Assembly (NCBI GenBank): GCA_964016885.1
Contig: OZ024755.1
Coordinates: forward strand, 22,568,001-22,632,000
Direction: 5' to 3'
Source: Eledone cirrhosa
Lineage: Eukaryota
Length of the DNA stretch: 64,000 nucleotides
A model generated the notes under the pieces. It did not search any database. It saw nothing but the letters and a program-made list of their open reading frames with translations, and was not told the DNA's origin. Made by a program: the position numbers and the translations under genes. Position 1 is the stretch's first letter. Every line of letters starts with the position of its first letter. Below, in pieces: positions 2,713 to 63,350 of the stretch.

Positions 2713-2790
2713 GTAGCTAATTTAATTTTTAAATGACAAGTGTATTACTTAAGCTTTTGATAATAGGTTTATAATCAGTGTCTCTGTAGA

Positions 2791-3274
2791 CAGTCAACTA
2801 GGGAACTCGGTTTCTGATATAATCCCAGCACAGTCAATAAGGGAACTCGGTTTCTGATATAATCCCAGCACAGTCAACAAGGGAACTCGGTTTCTGATAT
2901 AATCCCAGCACAGTCAATAAGGGAACTCAGTTTCTGATATAATCCCATCACAGTCAATAAGGGAACTCGGTTTCTGATATAATCCCAGCACAGTCAATAA
3001 GGGAACTCAGTTTCTGATATAATCCCAGCACAGTCAATAAGGGAACTCAGTTTCTGATATAATCCCAGCACAGTCAATAAGGGAACTCAGTTTCTGATAT
3101 AATCCCATCACAGTCAATAAGGGAACTCGGTTTCTGATATAATCCCAGCACAGTCAATAAGGGAACTCAGTTTCTGATATAATCCCAGCACAGTCAATAA
3201 GGGAACTCAGTTTCTGATATAATCCCATCACAGTCAATAAGGGAACTCGGTTTCTGATATAATCCCAGCACAGT
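2791..3274. repeat. 40-bp minisatellite, 12 copies
   Basis: Unit CAGTCAATAAGGGAACTCRGTTTCTGATATAATCCCAKCA. Confidence 0.97.
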
Positions 3275-6079: not shown

Positions 6080-7386
6080 CAGGGTGTGGACGATATTTGT
6101 TCGCAGTTTTCAACTGCTAATTTTATGCAAATTTTTTTTATTTCCATTGTCACTCTTGTCTTCATAAAAACAGTGACTATATTTCCATTATTTATTTTCA
6201 GAATAATTGATTATGAATAATTTTGAACCTCCAAATTTGCGGAAGAGACACAGAGTTCTTCTTGGAATCCGCGCCGGGAGGACAAATAAGGACATTTCAG
6301 ACTTTCTTAGCGTCAGCAGGAGAATGGTGGAAAAGGTCAGAAAGGAATTGGAAGATTCAGGATTCGACTATGAAGCAACATCAGAGAGGAAAACACATGA
6401 TCGACGATCTGACGCCTTCGGAACGCCCGAGTTCATCGCTGAAGTTCAGGATATCATCAACAATGAACCTCGCAAGTCGATGCGTGCCATTGCAAGGGAG
6501 AAAGGCGTGGATGAAAAGCTCATTAGGCTGGTGGTACATGAAGACATTCGCTACATTTCATACAAGATGAGGAAAGGACAGTTTCTGTCAAAGGCAATGC
6601 AAGAAAAGCAACTGAAGCACGCAAAGAAGTTGATCAACAAGTTGAAACACCCACTGGAGCCAGACATGCTGTGGTTTTTCTCCGACAAGAAAAACTTCTG
6701 CCAAGACCAGAAGATCAACTCCCAGAACAACAGGTGGTTCGCTGTCTCATCCAAAGACGTGCCCAGAGTCATTCAGACAAAGTTTCCAGCGACAACATTG
6801 GTCTTAGGTGTCGTCAGCAGTCAAGGTGACGTCCTGCCACCTCACTTCCTCCCTGAGGGCCTCAAGCTGAACACCGATGGCTACATCCGTGTTCTGAGCG
6901 AGGTAGTAAAGTACTGGATCGACCAGGTAGCTGCAGGTAGGCCGTACGTGTGGCAGCAAGACTCAGCGCCCTGCCATATCAGGCGAAAGACCCAAGCCTG
7001 GCTGTCAGAGAACTTCGTCGACCACACTTCACCTGACATCTGGCCTCCCAGCTCGCCTGACTGCAACCCCCTCGACTTCTTTGTATGGGGCGCAGTGGAA
7101 CGAGACACCAACAGATCTAGCTGCAATATGAAAGACGATCTGAAGGCCAGGATCACAAGTGCCTTTAGGGGGCTAAGTCGGGGGACAGTGACGAAGGCCT
7201 GTAGTCGGTTCCGAGGCCGCCTTGTGGCCGTCATCAAAGCCAATGGCGGGTTTATCGAGTGAGATCGAAAGAACAAGTCATGAAGACAAACTGACCCAAG
7301 TTTGATAAATATATCTTAAAAAATAAAACTACTGTGTTATTTTTTCCAAGACAGTAATCTTGCGAACATATATCGTCTGCACCGTG
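6080..7386 (+). mobile_element. Full-length Tc1/mariner transposon, DD37D (maT-type)
   Basis: TIRs CAGGGTGTGGACGATATTTGTTCGCA / TGCGAACATATATCGTCTGCACCGTG, TA on both flanks, internal transposase ORF. Confidence 0.93.
6213..7262 (+). CDS. DD37D transposase, 349 aa, uninterrupted
   Basis: N-terminal HTH-like region; motifs FFSD, WQQDSAPCH and WPPSSPDCNPLDF, with 37 residues between the second and third D. Confidence 0.92.
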   Translation: MNNFEPPNLRKRHRVLLGIRAGRTNKDISDFLSVSRRMVEKVRKELEDSGFDYEATSERKTHDRRSDAFGTPEFIAEVQDIINNEPRKSMRAIAREKGVDEKLIRLVVHEDIRYISYKMRKGQFLSKAMQEKQLKHAKKLINKLKHPLEPDMLWFFSDKKNFCQDQKINSQNNRWFAVSSKDVPRVIQTKFPATTLVLGVVSSQGDVLPPHFLPEGLKLNTDGYIRVLSEVVKYWIDQVAAGRPYVWQQDSAPCHIRRKTQAWLSENFVDHTSPDIWPPSSPDCNPLDFFVWGAVERDTNRSSCNMKDDLKARITSAFRGLSRGTVTKACSRFRGRLVAVIKANGGFIE

Positions 7387-13290: not shown

Positions 13291-13822
13291 GAGGTGAAGT
13301 AGATCCTGGTTTATATTGGAGGAATAAGGCGGGGGGAGGGTGAAGTAGGTTCTGGTTTATGTTGGAGGAATAAGGGAGGGGGTGAAGTAGGTTCTGGTTT
13401 ATGTTGGAGGAATAAGGCGGGGGGAGGGTGAAGTAGGTTCTGGTTTATGTTGGAGGAATAAGGGGGGATGAAGTAGGTTCTGGTTTATGTTGGAGGAATA
13501 AGGGGGGATGAAGTAGGTTCTGGTTTATGTTGGAAGAGTAAGGCGGGGGGAGGGTGAAGTAGGTTCTGGTTTATGTTGGAGGAATAAGGTGGGGGGAGGG
13601 TGAAGTAGGTTCTGGTTTATGTTGGAGGAATAAGGTGGGATGAAGTAGGTTCTGGTTTATGTTGGAGGAATAAGGGGGGATGAAGTAGGTTCTGGTTTAT
13701 GTTGGAGGAATAAGGGGGGGATGAAGTAGGTTCTGGTTTATGTTGGAGGAATAAGGGGGGATGAAGTAGGTTCTGGTTTATGTTGGAAGAATAAGGGGGT
13801 GTGGAAGTGAAGTAGGTTCTGA
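13291..13822. repeat. 40-46 bp G-rich minisatellite, about 13 copies
   Basis: Unit TGAAGTAGGTTCTGGTTTATGTTGGAGGAATAAGG(G)n. Confidence 0.95.
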
Positions 13823-14199
13823 TTTGAGATAAGAAATCTAAACAGCAGGAAGGAAATATTCAAAGCCAAATAGTAGATCAGCTGAAAATGTCATAATAAG
13901 AATTAACTTCCTTCAGTTTTCACCACATACACTTAGAATGGTGGAATTATAAACAAGTAATTTGCTTATCGGCCATTATATATATATATATATATATAAA
14001 TATGTATATACATCATGTGTTTGTGTGAGTGAGTGGGTGGGTTTTTTTTTATGAGTTGGTGAGATGGGGAAAGGCAATGCTGATGACCTTTGCAGACCTT
14101 TCCAGCTTAATGTAGTTGATTCTCTGTTTGAACAGTTGTAGGTTGACGTGTGCAGGAAAAAAAAAACATAGGAAGGGGCATTGGAGGGGAATTGCAGAC

Positions 14200-24069: not shown

Positions 24070-24720
24070 GTTTCTATGGCTGGATGTCCTTTCTAACACC
24101 AACCACTTTACAGAGTGTACTGGGAGCCTAGTTTCTATGGCTGGATGTCCTTTCTAACACCAACCACTTTACAGAGTGTACTGGGAGCATAGTTTCTATG
24201 GCTGGATGTCCTTCCTAACACCAACCACTTTACAGTGTGTACTGGGAGCCTAGTTTCTATGGCTAGATGTCCTAACACCAACCACTTTACAGAGTGTACT
24301 GGGAGCCTAGTTTCTATGGCTGGATGTCCTTCCTAACACCAACCACTTTACAGAGTGTACTGGGAGCATAGTTTCTATGGCTGCATGTCCTTTCTAACAC
24401 CAACCACTTTACAGAGTGTACTGGGAGCATAGTTTCTATGGCTGGATGCCCTTTCTAACACCAACCACTTTACAGAGTGTACTGGGAGCATAGTTTCTAT
24501 GGCTGCATGTCCTTTCTAACACCAACCACTTTACAGAGTGTACTGGGAGCATAGTTTCTATGGCTGCATGTCCTTTCTAACACCAACCACTTTACAGAGT
24601 GTACTGGGAGCCTAGTTTCTATGGCTGGATGTCCTTCCTAACACCAACCACTTTACAGTGTGTACTGGGAGTAGGGTTTCTATGGCTGGATGTCCTTCCT
24701 AATACCAACACTTTACTGGG
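24070..24720. repeat. 61-bp minisatellite, about 11 copies, derived from SINE/RTE 5' UTR sequence
   Basis: The unit contains GCTGGATGTCCTTCCTAACACCAACCACTTTACAG. Confidence 0.95.
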
Positions 24721-29140: not shown

Positions 29141-32050
29141 TCATCATCATCATCATCATCATTTTACGTCCGCTTTTCCCTGCTTGCAAGAGTGGGATGG
29201 GTCTTATTCAGCACAGCATCTCTCCACTCGTCACGGTCCTTCGTCATCTCCACCGTGAGCTTCAATGATCTGAGGTCTGTTCTCACCACCTCCGCCCATG
29301 TTTTTCGTGGTCTACCTCTACCATGTCTTCCTTCAACTGGCATTTCCTGGCACTTTTTCACCCATCGGTCATCCTCCATGCACATCACATGTCCATACCA
29401 CCTCAGTCTCCTTTCCCGTACACTACATTCTATCCCTCTCAGAGACAGTTTCTCTCTCAACACATTTATGCTGGGTCGTTCACACACATTTACACTACAC
29501 ATCCAATGGAGCATGCTTGCCTCATTTCTCTCCAGCCATCGCATATCCTCTGCAGTTGCTGCCCATGTCTCACTACCATGCAACATCTCACACAGGCATC
29601 ATATAACCGTCCTTTCGTGCGCAGGGAGAAACCCTTCTTTGTCAGCAGAGGAAGCAGCTCCCTAAGCTTCTTCCAACCCGTCCTTATTCTAGATACTATG
29701 GCCTCAGAACACCATCCTCCCATGCTAATCTGATCTCCTAGGTACCGGAAGCTATCCACCACTTCTATAGCGCCCTCCTGCATTTGAAAAATGTGTCTAT
29801 CAATGCGACTTCTACTGTTTAATTTCCCTGTACATCTACTGCATACAAATTTCTCCCTACCTGTTAGTTTGCCTGCTATCCCGCTACATCTCTTGTGTAC
29901 CCAGGATCTGCATTGTGTGCATTTTATAGAATTTATGCCAGTTCCTTTTCTGCATATCGAACATGGCCATTTCCCTGATGGAATCAGAGTTTTGTCCTCT
30001 TTTCTACTCATCAACACTTTTGTCTTAGCTAGGTTCACTCTCAGTCCTCTTGCTTCCAACTGCTGTTTCCATAGCCAGAATTTATTCTCTAGCTCCTCTA
30101 CTGATTCTGCTATAAGAACCAGATCATCAGCATAGAGAGGTTCCCATGGACAGCCAGTCTTAAACTCCTCTGTTATGGCTTGGAGGACTATAATGAACAA
30201 GAGCGGGCTGAGGACCGAACCTTGATGTACTCCTACTTGTATCTGGAATTCCTCACTAAACTCCATTCCTACCCTTACTTTACTGAGAGTACCTCTGTAC
30301 AAAGTTTGCACTGTCCTCACAAGCCATTCCTCAACACCTAGCTTCCTTAGGGACCACCAGATGACAGATCGGGGTACCCTATCAAAGGCCTTCTCTAGGT
30401 CAACAAAGGCTAAGTATAGTGCCTTCAGCATCTCAGCAACTATTCCCGATGGTCCAGCAGCCTTACCATTTTTCATTTCCTTAATCGCCTCTTGGACCCT
30501 ATATTCGTCAATCTCAATAGCTGGTCCCTCTGTCGGATCTACTAAGGGTAGTTTCTCTCTCTCCCATTCGTTCTCCACATTCATCAGTCTCTCATAATGA
30601 CATTTCCAGGCCTCCTTTTTCTGATCATTCGTGACACTAAGTACACCGGCATCATCCCAGATACATTTATCTCCAACAACATCCTGATTTGCATTGACAC
30701 ACTGCCTTGCAATGTGGAACACCGCACGCCTCTGATCTTTCCGTCGCAGAACATTGGCAAACCTCCTACTCTCCGCCTCCCTGCGTGCTAAGTACACCTG
30801 ACGTCTAGCTTCTCTCTTAGTGGCTGTATATTCTTCCCTACTCCCACCCTTTTTCCAAGCCTTCCATGCTAGTCTTTTGTCTCTAATGGCCTTATCTACT
30901 GTGTTGTTCCACCACCAGGTCACTCTCTGTCTGGTTGGAGCTCTGCTCCAGCCACAAGTTTCATCAGTAGCCTGCAGCAAGTTGTCACGTAAGAAATTCC
31001 AGTTATTATCTATGTCATACATCTCTAAATCTTCTTCTTTTTCATCATATACATCTTGAAGGGCTTTCCTAAATTTGTATTTTAGTGAAAGGTCTTTTAG
31101 CTTCCAGACCTTTCTTCTCCACACCTTCCTGTATGTCTCATTCCATCTCTTGTTTACTGAGATATCACTAACAACTAACCTATGCTGTGGAGTACATTCT
31201 TCCCCAGGGTATGCCTTGGTATTAGACACTATCTGCCTGTCCCGCTGCCTAACTAGTAAGAAGTCAATCTGGCTTATGTGCTCACCAGATTTGTAGGTTA
31301 TTAGATTTGTAGATTGGCAGGTTTCTGGAAGTCTGCGTTGCAAATAGTCAATGTACCTGCATCACAAAATTCAAGAAGTCTCACTCCTTCTGCATTTCTT
31401 GAACCGTAACCGTGCCCACCATGTACCCCAGTGTAATCATCCTGAAGCTGTCCAACATGACCATTGAAGTCTCCTGCTAGCATAACGATGTCTCCGTCCT
31501 CTGTCATTGTGGTTGTTTGTAAAAGTTGCTCGTAAAAGCAGTCTTTCTCATCTTTGCCTAGGCCTGCTTGGGGAGCATAGACCGAGATGATTGTCAGTAG
31601 TCTCCTGCCTACAACTAATCTAAGCGTAATTATTCGATTACTAACTCAAACTACCTCTATTGTCTTATTGATCCATTTCTCAGCCAGGAAAATGCCTACT
31701 CCCCCTAACCCATCATCCTTACCTACCCAGAATAGCTTATAGCTAAGACGCTTGCCTATGACTAGTCTCGCAGAGGCACCTCTCCATCTCACCTCTTGCA
31801 CGCAGCACACATCCACATGCCTTCTCTCCAGCATCTCCGCTATTTCAGCAGATCTACCTCTGAGAGTGCCAACGTTAAGTGTTGCAACTCTGAGATGCGA
31901 CGTCTTCATATTTTGTTGTTGTTCCTATTTGTTGCTGTGCTGATAAGCGTTTTGGCATTGATACACTGGTTGGATGCCCTTCCTAACACCAGCGCCACTT
32001 TACAGCATGGACTGGGTGCTTTTATTTGTGCCACCAGCACTAGAGAGGAT
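29141..32050 (-). mobile_element. Near full-length RTE-clade LINE (APE endonuclease + RT), disrupted
   Basis: ATG at 31909; APE motifs LNVGTL, CVQEVRW, GDFNGHVG and QIDF; RT motifs FVDLEKAFD, QGSVLSPLLF, YADDL and YLG; C-terminal RLRWYGHV...GRGRPRKTW; (ATG)n tail. One stop, frameshifts and an internal deletion. Confidence 0.95.
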
Positions 32051-32260: not shown

Positions 32261-33028
32261 TACCGGCAGTAGTGATACAAAATCAAAATCATGTCAACTG
32301 TTGACTTTTCCCAGTCCAGTTCAGTTTATATATAATAATAATAATTGTTTCCACCCTAGGCACAAGGCCAGCAACTACCCAGTGCACCACTGGTACTTTA
32401 TTCCATTGACCCCGTAAGGATGAAAGGCAAAGTCAAATAATAATTGTTTGCTTTACGCTGGTAATGGTGGTGGTGGTGGTGGTGAATGGTGGTGGATAGT
32501 GTCAGTATGGTGATGGTGGTGGTGGTGGTGGTGGTGGTGGATGGTCAGTGATGGTGGTGGCAGTTGTTGCTGTAGTTGCTGTTGCTGTTGTTGTTGTTGC
32601 TGCTGTTGCTGTTGTTGTTGTTGCTGCTGCTGCTGCCGTTGTTGTTCTTCTTCATTTCACTGATGCTGCAGACAATGGTGTTGATGCTGTTATTGTAGTC
32701 GCATATATATAAATACATACATACACACACATTCAACACAGACAATGGTGTTGTTGCTGTTGTTGTTGTTGTGTATATATAATGAAGGACTACTGTCCAA
32801 AACATAAAGACTCTTTTTCCTACTATTTCAAGTGTTAAACTAATATATTTCTTCATTGTCTTATTTTGTTTGCTTTGTTGTTTCTGTTTACTTTTTGCTT
32901 ACATACATATATATGTGTGTGTGTGATTGTTCTTTAGGGATATAAGCAAGGTGTTTCTCTAATTTGTAATGTTTTTCAGCCAATTCGAAAGCCTTTCAGT
33001 CTCCTATTTATGTTCTCCTTTTCTACAG

Positions 33029-34614
33029 ATGATTACAACTTAGTTGTATGACATACAGCTAAAGTTATACAGGTGATTACAACTTAGTTGTATGACATAC
33101 AGCTAAAGTTATACAGATGATTACAACTTGGTTGTATGACATACAGCTAAAGGTGTACAGATGATTACAACTTAGTTGTATGACATACAGCTGAAGTTAT
33201 ACAGATGATTACAACTTAGTTGTATGACATACGGCTAAAGTTATACAGATGATTACAACTTAGTTGTATGACATACAGCTAAAGTTATACAGATGATTAC
33301 AACTTGGTTGTATGACATACGGCTAAAGTTATACAGATGATTACAACTTAGTTGTATGACATACAGCTAAAGTTATACAGATGATTACAACTTGGTTGTA
33401 TGACATACAGCTAAAGTTATACAGATGATTACAACTTGGTTGTATGACATACAGCTAAAGTTATACAGATGATTACAACTTAGTTGTATGACATACAGCT
33501 AAAGTTATACAGATGATTACAACTTGGTTGTATGACATACAGCTAAAGTTATACAGATGATTACAACTTAGTTGTATGACATACAGCTAAAGTTATACAG
33601 GTGATTACAACTTAGTTGTATGACATACAGCTAAAGTTATACAGATGATTACAACTTGGTTGTATGACATACAGCTAAAGTTATACAGATGATTACAACT
33701 TGGTTGTATGACATACAGCTAAAGTTATACAGATGATTACAACTTGGTTGTATGACATACAGCTAAAGTTATACAGATGATTACAACTTGGTTGTATGAC
33801 ATACAGCTAAAGTTATACAGATGATTACAACTTGGTTGTATGACATACAGCTAAAGTTATACAGATGATTACAACTTGGTTGTATGACATACAGCTAAAG
33901 TTATACAGGTGATTACAACTTGGTTGTATGACATACAGCTAAAGTTATACAGATGATTACAACTTGGTTGTATGACATACAGCTAAAGTTATACAGATGA
34001 TTACAACTTGGTTGTATGACATACAGCTAAAGTTATACAGATGATTACAACTTGGTTGTATGACATACAGCTAAAGTTATACAGATGATTACAACTTGGT
34101 TGTATGACATACAGCTAAAGTTATACAGATGATTACAACTTAGTTGTATGACATACAGCTAAAGGTGTACAGATGATTACAACTTGGTTGTATGACATAC
34201 AGCTAAAGTTATACAGATGATTACAACTTAGTTGTATGACATACAGCTAAAGTTATACAGATGATTACAACTTGGTTGTATGACATACAGCTAAAGTTAT
34301 ACAGATGATTACAACTTAGTTGTATGACATACAGCTAAAGTTATACAGATGATTACAACTTGGTTGTATGACATACAGCTAAAGTTATACAGGTGATTAC
34401 AACTTAGTTGTATGACATACAGCTAAAGTTATACAGATGATTACAACTTGGTTGTATGACATACAGCTAAAGTTATACAGGTGATTACAACTTAGTTGTA
34501 TGACATACAGCTAAAGTTATACAGATGATTACAACTTGGTTGTATGACATACAGCTAAAGTTATACAGGTGATTACAACTTAGTTGTACGAGATATACTG
34601 CTGAAGGTGTACAG
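33029..34614. repeat. 44-bp minisatellite, about 36 highly homogeneous copies
   Basis: Unit RTGATTACAACTTRGTTGTATGACATACAGCTAAAGTTATACAG. Confidence 0.98.
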
Positions 34615-35199
34615 GTTATCATGGATTATTGTTCTGAATGTTCTAAGACATTTAGACTCAGTATTAGCCATTGTCGCTGTTTTTATGTCACACTTACCAT
34701 GTTAGCATGGGTTAAATGAGACTTTGTGAGGTAGTTTTTCTATGGCCAGATAACCTTCCTGTGCTAACCTTTACTTTATAAGTATGGCATATGCTATTTA
34801 TCTTCATCAGAGGACTATGCTGTGGGACATATTGTTTACGCATGGCATAGACAAACAACACTGCTGCTTTAAACATTGTAAATACGAAGACGAATACTGT
34901 AAACTGACATGCATACACATGCACACATATACATATGTACACATACACATATACACACACACATATATTATCATCTTCATCATCATCATACGTCCACTTT
35001 TCCCTGCTTGCAAGGGTTTATATGCACATAATTCTACGTCTACTTTTCCATGCTGGCATAGGTTGGATGGGATTTTTTGAGGCAATACTTTATAGCTGGA
35101 TGCCCTTCCTGACAGCAAACTTAGCTACTTCTTTCAACAAACAGGGATACGGTGGAGCCATTCTAAACCAGATAGATATACATCAGTAGATATTTTCTC

Positions 35200-35865
35200 A
35201 TTCTCTGTCCTCTTTCTTAACATCATTCTTATTTGTCTCTATACCAGATGACCAGAAGTTCTCTCTGTCCTCTGTCCTATCATTGCTGCTATTTGTTTCA
35301 ATTCCAGATGACCAATAGGTCTCTGTCTTCTGTCCTATCATTGCTGTTATTTGTCTCAATTTCAAATGATCAATAGTTTTCTGTCCTATCATTGCTGTTA
35401 TCTGTCTCTATACCAGATGACCAGAAGTTCTCTCTGTCCTCTGTCCTATCATTGCTGCTATTTGCTTCAATTCCAGATGACCAATAGGTCTCTGTCTTCT
35501 GTCCTATCATTGCTGTTATTTGTCTCAATTTCAAATGACCAATAGTTTTCTGTCCTATCATTGCTGTTATCTGTCTCTATACCAGATGACCAGAAGTTCT
35601 CTCTGTCCTCTGTCCTATCATTGCTGCTATTTGTTTCAATTTCAGATGACCAATAGTTCTCTTTGTCCTCTGTCTTATCATTGCTGTTATTTGTCTCAAT
35701 TCCAGATGACCAATAGTTCTCTGTCCTATCATTGCTGTTATCTGTCTCAATTCCAGATGACCAATAGTTCTCTGTCCTATCATTGCTGTTATCTGTCTCA
35801 ATTTCAGATGACCAATAGTTCTCTGTCCTATCATTGCTGTTATTTGTCTCAATTCCAGATGACCA
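35200..35865. repeat. 51-60 bp minisatellite, 12 units, spanning an intron-exon junction
   Basis: Unit CTGTCCTATCATTGCTGTTATYTGTCTCAATTYCAGATGACCAATAGTT; spacings 60,58,51,60,58,51,60,60,51,51,51. Confidence 0.95.
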
Positions 35866-36100
35866 GTATGATGCGTAACCAGTCACCGACAACCAATGAA
35901 AACGATGTCCGCATGAGGAGCAATCGACCCAGCAAAGAGAACAATGAAACAAAAGAGCAGGCAGTCCAACAACAGACACCTCAGAACCAACCAGCAGAAG
36001 ATGTTGTTAGTCCACCAGGTTCCCCAACCCATTCACGAGAAAGACGATTCTCCACCACGTGTTGCTTCTGCTGGTGCTGCACTCCTCCTTGTTTCTCCAA
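35859..36100 (+). CDS. RGS17/19/20: Coding exon of a probable RZ-family regulator of G-protein signalling (cysteine-string exon)
   Basis: Acceptor tttgtctcaattccAG and donor AA|GTAAGC. Reads MTSMMRNQSP...RERRFSTTCCFCWCCTPPCFS; TCCFCWCC matches the RGS17/20 cysteine string. No RGS domain exon was found in the window. Confidence 0.68.
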
Positions 36101-36265
36101 GTAAGCAGCTTTTCCTCTGCCAACATTGTTGTTGTTGTTTTGGTTTTTACTGAGGGTTGTTGTTGTTGTTGTTGTTTCAGAAAGAGGTAGATTGGCTGAT
36201 GTAGGGAGGGGGAGGGGGGGGGGGGGGTAAGTGAGAGAGGCAGTTCTTTCTTAGCTCCACCTGTG

Positions 36266-42419: not shown

Positions 42420-42893
42420 TCCTATCTGTGGCCATATTGGGGCATGTGAGGCTCAGATATCGAGTCAGTTCATCACACCATCTTGCCTCTTGTTCTTCTC
42501 CACTGCCTTGACCACACTGTCACTCTAATATTCCACCTGTTGTCTCTGAGACGAGAGAAATGGCCAGGTGGCCAGGTGTCCACTCTGCCACTCTAATAGT
42601 CCACATGTTGTCTCTGAAATGAGAGACATGGCCAGGTGGCCAGGTGTCCACTCTGCCACTCTAATAGTCCACATGTTGTCTCTGAAATGAGAGACATGGC
42701 CAGGTGGCCAGGTGTCCACTCTGCCACTCTAATAGTCCACATGTTGTCTCTGAAATGAGAGATGTGGCCAAGCCTGGTGTCCACTCAGTCACTCTGATAG
42801 TCCACATGTTGTCTCTGAAATGAAATATGTGGCCAAGCCAGGTGTCCACTCAGTCACTCTGATAGTCCACCTGTTGTCTCTGAGACGAGAGAC
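42420..42893 (-). mobile_element. RTE-like C-terminal fragment with an internal 65-68 bp segment tandemly amplified about 6 times
   Basis: The unit encodes GHISHFRDNMWTIRVAEWTP and continues into RWCDELTRYL...ATDRKWW. Confidence 0.75.
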
Positions 42894-47767: not shown

Positions 47768-48282
47768 GATATCACCACATACACTCTACAATACTCTCTC
47801 TCTCTCTCATCTATGAAAATATAAGGAGATATCACACCACATACACTTTACAATACTCTGTCTACTATCTATGAAAATATAAGGAGATATCACACCACAT
47901 ACACTCTACAATACTCTCTCTACTATCTATGAAAATATAAGGAGATATCACACCACATACACTCTACAATACTCTCTCTACTATCTATGAAAATATAAGG
48001 AGATATCACACCACATACACTTTACAATACTCTGCCTACTATCTATGAAAATATAAGGAGATATCACACCACATACACTCTACAATACTCTGTCTACTAT
48101 CTATGAAAATATAAGGAGATATCACACCACATACACTCTACAATACTCTGTCTACTATCTATGAAAATATAAGGAGATATCACACCACATACACTTTACA
48201 ATACTCTGCCTACTATCTATGAAAATATAAGGAGATATCACACCACATACACTCTACAATACTCTCTCTTCTATGTATGAAA
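47768..48282. repeat. 58-bp minisatellite, about 9 copies
   Basis: Unit GATATCACACCACATACACTYTACAATACTCTSTCTACTATCTATGAAAATATAAGGA. Confidence 0.95.
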
Positions 48283-50992: not shown

Positions 50993-51040
50993 CCTAGGTA
51001 GCGGAAGAAGTTCTAAGGGAGATAATTCCCCTATTTCAAA
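50993..51040 (+). CDS. Putative 48-nt symmetric (phase 2-2) exon of the same gene, (N)LGSGRSSKGDNSPIS
   Basis: Long T-rich tract followed by tAG, consensus donor AAA|GTAAGT. Open in exactly the frame required after the 35859-36100 exon. Confidence 0.55.
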
Positions 51041-62568: not shown

Positions 62569-63036
62569 TGCAACTGGTGCAGCCAGTCGTTGGGGTGCCT
62601 CTCTATATGTGCAGCTGGTGCAGCCAGTCGTTGGGGTGCCTCTCTAGATGTGCAACTGGTGCAGCCAGTCGTTGGGGTGACTCTCTAGATGTGCAACTGG
62701 TGAAGCCAGTCGTTGGGGTGCCTCTCTAGATGTGCAACTGGTGAAGCCAGTCGTTGGGGTGCCTCTCTAGATGTGCAACTGGTGAAGCCAGTCGTTGGGG
62801 TGCCTCTCTAGATGTGCAACTGGTGCAGCCAGTCGTTGGGGTGCCTCTCTATATGTGCAGCTGGTGCAGCCAGTCGTTGGAGTGCCTCTCTAGATGTGCA
62901 ACTGGTGAAGCCAGTCGTTGGGGTGCCTCTCTAGATGTGCAACTGGTGCAGCCAGTTGTTGGGATGCTATTCTAGATGTGGAGATGGTGCAGCTAGTCAT
63001 TGAAGTGCCACTCTAGATGTGCAACTGGTGCAGTCA
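62569..63036. repeat. 41-bp GC-rich minisatellite, about 11 copies
   Basis: Unit GATGTGCAACTGGTGMAGCCAGTCGTTGGGGTGCCTCTCTA. Confidence 0.95.
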
Positions 63037-63039
63037 GTC

Positions 63040-63350
63040 ATTGCCATTGGTCTCTGTTCTCTGTCATGTGTAGAAGAGTCTCAGTGTTGTGACCAGTCCA
63101 GCCTTTGAGGTTGTCGGACCACGATTTTCTTTGTCTTTTCTTTGCTCTCTCCTGGTTTAATTCTCCCTGTAGCCAAGGTGTAGCATTTAATATCACCAAA
63201 ACCTTCTTGACACTAATACAGAGGTTCTTCTCAATTCTTAAGTCTAATGCGCAGGACCTTCTCAATACATACCACATGATATTTAACAAGAACTCTTTGA
63301 AACATAGTCATAGCTATAATAAAAGTATCATGAATTTGGTTTCTGGCATC
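63040..63350 (-). mobile_element. Degenerate RTE-like LINE 3' fragment
   Basis: LQG...RQRKSWSDNLKGWTG...ENRDQW. Confidence 0.7.

Follow-up and report, generated by a model that had tools for sequence, protein, structure and literature searches.

A tandem array that repeats the splice acceptor of an RGS17-like exon in the octopod Eledone cirrhosa is probably a boundary-spanning "mirage" minisatellite whose extra units leave with the intron

Tandem repeats whose units cross an exon boundary have been described in amphioxus and human genes. In the amphioxus BflGb6 globin and Adh3 genes, so-called mirages repeat in tandem the 3' end of an intron together with the start of the next exon, and the available part of the report (PMC3087553) describes them as unstable in length and as leaving splicing undisturbed. 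Their units are 81-100% identical, the unit at the boundary itself lies outside the homogenization, and a difference in length between haplotypes was shown (PMC3087553, same part); the Adh3 mirage is considered here as it is cited in that source. In human CBS, the variant c.844_845ins68 duplicates the last 52 intron bases and the first 16 exon bases, and according to the accessible portion of the source (PMC7490669) splicing goes to the downstream acceptor and removes the upstream copy. Boundary minisatellites on the donor side are represented in humans by F7 IVS7, 6-16, CBS IVS13, lamin B2, and PDGF. In these, as far as the excerpted source goes (PMC1557585), the exon-proximal site is used, joined in 6-16 and CBS IVS13 by the next one or two. 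A literature search of limited coverage returned no report on the locus described here or on cephalopod mirages.

The window, which is the whole stretch of DNA analyzed, comprises 64,000 nt of Eledone cirrhosa (GCA_964016885.1, contig OZ024755.1, positions 22,568,001 to 22,632,000, forward strand). At 35248-35866, 12 tandem units with a repeat length of 51-60 nt span the intron-exon boundary of an RGS17-like gene, each joining about 43-52 intron bases to the first 7-8 exon bases. The units start at 35248, 35308, 35366, 35417, 35477, 35535, 35586, 35646, 35706, 35757, 35808, and 35859, with consecutive spacings of 60, 58, 51, 60, 58, 51, 60, 60, 51, 51, and 51 nt. The array sequence has a single match genome-wide (in a search that skips very common words), which points to local derivation rather than to a dispersed repeat. 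Being tandem, local, and composed of boundary-crossing units, the array is a boundary-spanning, or mirage, minisatellite. CAG precedes 10 of the 12 unit starts, the native one included, and CAA stands before 35366 and 35535; many of the extra copies, 9 of 11, have therefore retained the AG, and the count of ten in twelve made by an earlier sequence-only reading is correct. The same reading had every unit copying ATGACCA, the first bases of the exon. This is so in general, with the corrections that one unit reads ATGATCA and three units copy 8 bases. Every unit carries a start ATG.

Tandem Repeats Finder (TRF) resolves the array as a 51-nt period with 11.9 copies (35202-35865) and as a higher-order period of 169 nt with 3.9 copies, the higher-order blocks being 98-100% identical to one another. 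On the forward strand, a diverged outermost unit that ends in CAG (35188-35247) precedes six distal units forming two 169-nt higher-order repeats of 60, 58, and 51 nt (35248-35585); within these, the AG is kept before 35248, 35308, 35417, and 35477 and lost at the two CAA positions. Five proximal units of 60, 60, 51, 51, and 51 nt follow (35586-35858), each preceded by CAG, and they lead to the native acceptor AG at 35857-35858. Inner units are 78-100% identical, the last three 96-98%, and the outermost one is 58-65% identical to the others, a pattern of concerted evolution; homogeneity is greatest among the in-frame units adjoining the exon. The reading frame is open from 35535 into the exon and encodes one Cys-Cys per unit. 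Translation bears out the earlier statement on the five extra acceptors nearest the exon: all keep the frame, none meets a stop, and each would add 17-20 amino acids (aa) with a Cys-Cys. The offset of the distal units by 58-nt units is likewise real, two such units breaking the frame inside the array. The four distal AG copies lie 5' of one or two of these 58-nt units, and reading through them from an in-frame ATG upstream meets a stop.

The exon that adjoins the array (35859-36100, forward strand) is 242 nt long, has the start ATG at its first base, and encodes a cysteine string. Its donor GT at 36101 was inferred from ortholog phase and from a donor score of 7.0; the earlier identification of the exon thus stands, and its extent is corrected to end at 36100. 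The 81-aa product is 81% identical to Octopus bimaculoides RGS17 (two clusters among seven candidates). The next coding exon, of 48 nt (50993-51040, forward strand), is absent from 3 of 11 proteins of the ortholog cluster, and further exons, including those for the RGS domain, continue past the end of the window and are 92-100% identical to orthologs. An N-terminal cysteine string and a C-terminal RGS domain therefore belong to one gene, as is characteristic of the RZ subfamily, and the proposal of a cysteine-string RGS exon is confirmed by these downstream exons and by RGS17-like orthologs in O. bimaculoides, O. vulgaris, O. sinensis, and Argonauta hians. The cysteine string is identical between this exon and the octopod orthologs; in RZ-family RGS proteins, such strings are palmitoylation sites. 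The exon is present in 11 of 12 retrieved ortholog proteins, five of which begin at its ATG and six of which have other short leaders (that of O. sinensis ends in FQ), and the repeat peptide is absent from all 12. A search of the region upstream for the leaders of orthologs P0012 and P0011 gave no convincing match, and no Pfam family scores above cut-off in the frame that contains the repeats.

Evidence on splicing comes from assembled contigs of sequencing runs. Four runs contain the exon, none of them on record as RNA, and one (X4) was taken as RNA because its contig is spliced. This contig, of 370 nt and depth 3.8, aligns from exactly 35859, covers the exon over 35859-36095, and has a loose end of 133 nt. 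The last 30 letters of the contig have a unique match in the genome, in an exon that ends at G000:C15:22520971 and is followed by GT. The junction spans an intron of 82,887 nt, from an upstream exon 82.9 kb away to the native AG. Among acceptors, only 35859 was seen (one contig, one run, depth 3.8). Because contigs lose rare variants, minor isoforms are invisible in them; X4 has no cover over 35750-35853 or the distal acceptor of the upstream exon, gaps that carry no weight here, since a contig can attest presence but not absence. By the standard that the sequence-only reading had set for its own refutation, the one junction seen speaks against the use of extra acceptors, with the weight of one contig at depth 3.8.

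The upstream exon, at G000:C15:22520862-22520971, is 110 nt long and contains an in-frame ATG in good context, so any units included in the transcript would be translated. Its own acceptor is duplicated, with two copies 69 nt apart (L007:1309-1354 and 1379-1423; on G000:C15, about 47 kb before the window) that score 10.1 (distal) and 9.3 (proximal). The X4 contig, matched here by its length and depth, aligns only from the proximal AG, and its first 21 letters do not align to the preceding genomic DNA. At both duplicated acceptors of this RGS17-like gene, then, the exon-proximal copy is the one seen in a transcript, as represented by one shallow contig. A candidate exon ending in AG at G000:C15:22502549 (L202) encodes the three-residue leader of O. 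bimaculoides RGS17 isoform X1 and may supply the 21 unaligned letters. Joined to the 110-nt exon, this candidate would give a short upstream open reading frame; joined directly to the cysteine-string exon, it would be in frame.

Taken together, these observations are best explained by a 12-unit tandem copy of the acceptor whose extra units are spliced out with the intron, a probably near-neutral mirage, and we hold this reading with good confidence. The junction in the one spliced contig falls on the copy next to the exon, which makes it likely that the extra copies are removed with the intron. The array would have arisen by one local tandem duplication across the junction, after which slippage or unequal exchange may have multiplied the copies, in a genome rich in minisatellites. 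Its open frame and Cys-Cys pairs probably follow from nothing more than units whose length is a multiple of three and a TGCTGT in the pyrimidine tract. When junction duplications were simulated, 74 of 157 acceptors gave stop-free units at 51 nt and 60 of 157 at 60 nt, and half of the complex arrays (38 of 76) have periods divisible by 3. Cys-Cys is uncommon among the simulated open units (5/74 at 51 nt and 3/60 at 60 nt). Cys-Cys, frame, and openness occur jointly at roughly 1%, a figure judged after the fact, and this modestly favors the functional proposal of the sequence-only reading.

How the native acceptor is chosen is not explained by site strength. With a matrix trained on acceptors of the same genome, the nine extra AG copies score 6.2-10.4, bracketing the native site at 9.7, and 35808 and 35757 score 8.0-8.2. 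Strength does not set the native AG apart from the others, and exon definition is therefore the likely basis of the choice. Nor would branch-point scanning offer an explanation, since every unit appears to bring a pyrimidine tract of its own and, as judged by eye, a possible branch site. Under exon definition, the native AG would be favored because it and the donor at 36101 would pair across the smallest distance, an exon of 242 nt as against 293-853 nt for the extra AGs (293 nt from 35808 and 344 nt from 35757). Among surveyed exons, a set biased to short ones, the median length is 167 nt, 10 of 120 are at least 293 nt, and 3 of 120 are at least 395 nt. A microexon within the array was considered and rejected, as no GT in the array scores above 0.8, compared with 7.0 for the native donor.

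Searches for RGS, Ras, and kinase exons gave 265 matches, and we surveyed other splice sites of the genome through 221 of them (60 top matches plus 161 chosen by eye), the matches omitted being mostly long-frame or adjacent ones; confident sites numbered 157 of 216 picks for acceptors and 163 of 219 for donors. A fixed test, which recovers 9 copies at the focal acceptor yet missed two cases seen by eye, detected local junction copies at 3 of 320 surveyed sites; with those two added, the count is 5 of 321. Such copies were commoner at random intronic AG or GT sites (217 of 3169) than at surveyed splice sites, and at least 3 copies were present at 1 of 321 sites (95% interval 0.008-1.7%) versus 114 of 3169 random ones. 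The corresponding Fisher P values (1.5e-6, 3.4e-5, and 3.9e-4) are overstated, as up to ten control sites were taken per exon. That controls are richer in copies than splice sites is what would be expected of a mutational process filtered by selection. Junction arrays are thus uncommon and depleted at splice sites, where they look disfavored, yet recurrent in the E. cirrhosa genome, and by extrapolation hundreds per genome are plausible.

Several loci from this survey deserve description in their own right. A donor-side mirror of the focal array is a minisatellite of 58 nt x 5.4 copies (L156, G000:C2:271967612-271967767, minus strand) that starts within a Ras-family (Rab-like) exon and multiplies the probable donor of that exon, copy two being identical to copy one. 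A two-copy donor was found by eye at L076 (C22:16484492). Single local copies occur at this locus and at L072 (C22:284716), L100 (C1:322458984), and L083 (C3:140516517), in small GTPase and kinase genes. The donor copies lie about 59, 362, and 367 nt inside the intron, the acceptor copy 278 nt upstream. Near G000:C23:7240887 (L117), an array of 22 nt x 21 copies consists of pyrimidine-rich TAG decoys; it stops about 35 nt before the acceptor of a kinase exon and copies no exon bases. A related 48-nt minisatellite unit recurs at the unlinked loci L153, L197, L134, L195, and L005, often ending 40-60 nt before an acceptor. Finally, two similar pieces of a Ras-family exon lie 140 nt apart at G000:C4:285790402-285790667 (L111), possibly as a duplicated or mutually exclusive exon.

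The introns of the RGS17-like gene itself hold other repetitive elements. Additional complex minisatellites with periods of 40-68 nt lie at 2790-3274, 13295-13825, 24070-24716, 33024-34595, 42512-42893, 47773-48282, and 62569-63043, so that such arrays are common here. An intronic open frame of 351 codons (6207-7259, forward strand), whose N-terminal part matches HTH_23 weakly and below cut-off, resembles what we take to be a Tc1/mariner-type transposase. Another, of 623 codons on the reverse strand (29493-31361), matches RVT_1 and a PHD finger and is likely an intronic non-LTR retrotransposon.

It is possible, but in our view unlikely, that splicing is leaky and unselected, a minority of transcripts using the one or two extra acceptors closest to the exon (35808 and 35757). 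Such use would lengthen the protein by 17 or 34 aa or bring in an upstream ATG, and the open frame would keep the leak harmless, so that the array persists. The scores of these two sites, not far below that of the native one, the lengths of their exons, which fall within the surveyed range, and the in-frame position of all five proximal units are compatible with a leak, as is the use of the nearest pseudosites in human 6-16 and CBS IVS13 (PMC1557585, in the part available). Against it, the sole junction seen is the native one, and the sources, in the parts we cite, report that the authentic site only is used in F7, lamin B2, and PDGF (PMC1557585) and in the amphioxus mirages (PMC3087553). If minor in-frame use were real and dependent on the allele, repeat length would be linked directly to the N terminus of a signaling protein.

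The sequence-only reading had gone further and proposed that the array tunes N-terminal length, lipidation, start-codon choice, or nonsense-mediated decay. We found no positive support for this: the X4 contig uses 35859, and orthologs are without the peptide. That copy number and acceptor choice have been selected to set the number of N-terminal Cys-Cys pairs, palmitoylation, and the start codon is very improbable. Its appeal lies in the open frame, in the Cys-Cys of each unit beside an adjoining cysteine string, in the upstream in-frame ATG, in the rarity of Cys-Cys among simulated units, and in contig depths that hint at a longer allele, by about two proximal units. On the other side stand the failure to find any transcript or protein with a unit, the frame-breaking 58-nt units inside the array, the ortholog proteins that lack the repeat peptide, and the similar junction copies carried by unrelated genes of the same genome. 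We also consider it improbable that some tissues use the nearest extra acceptors appreciably, with allele-dependent 17-aa Cys-Cys units preceding the cysteine string. If this were true, a boundary minisatellite in an octopod would be an inherited regulator of how heavily RGS17 is lipidated and of which start codon is used.

The array and its copy number can be followed in short DNA contigs from three runs of one sample (X1-X3), which is possibly the source of the assembly itself. Compared over the portion from 35750 onward, these contigs reproduce the variants among units and the lengths of pieces found in the assembled array, and among the X1 records shown, 5 of 8 (39, 41, 50, 39, and 41 nt) match the lengths of de Bruijn pieces of the assembly. 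Relative to a single-copy piece, depth is about 4.8-5.4 where three copies are assembled, 2.9-3.3 where two are assembled, and 2.4-2.8 where one is assembled (a 57-mer), the three runs of the one sample being alike. One contig begins at 35778, a point without a branch in the assembly. Such depths, and this branch, hint at a second allele that is longer by some two proximal units or at a slightly collapsed assembly, so that the variation between individuals implied by the earlier term VNTR is hinted at rather than proved. That the array is an artefact, or its copy number badly misassembled, is scarcely credible: several contigs are deeper than the assembled copy number, so the assembled count may be low, but the DNA contigs agree with the assembly in unit variants and piece lengths, and the differences among units follow a structured pattern. 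We therefore regard the array as real.

Read as we think most likely, as a mirage whose extra units leave with the intron, the locus extends mirage minisatellites to cephalopods; within this genome, boundary arrays are found again, next to donors as well as acceptors. With ten acceptors of nearly equal strength at the end of an 83-kb intron, it is also a natural test case for how one of them is selected. Gene predictors may be misled by it and could add a false Cys-rich N terminus at this exon.

Comparison with the known systems places the array with the amphioxus mirages, although with differences. The human minisatellites of PMC1557585, in the part of that source at hand, lie on the donor side, and their polymorphism and mechanism were tested, whereas the present array is on the acceptor side. 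Boundary-spanning tandem copies, many but not all of them with the AG, and a high identity among units are common to the amphioxus mirages and to this locus (PMC3087553, available part). By the same partial account, the units of BflGb6 are 150-160 nt long; those of this mollusc are 51-60 nt. In contrast to the amphioxus mirages as described there (PMC3087553), just 7-8 exon bases are copied here, each unit has a start ATG, and the proximal frame is open; where a length difference was shown for amphioxus haplotypes, contig depths hint at one here. CBS 844ins68 is a single polymorphic two-copy insertion, compared with the 12 units of E. cirrhosa, and, within the accessible portion of PMC7490669, the two cases have in common that the exon-proximal acceptor is the one used, as seen here in one contig.
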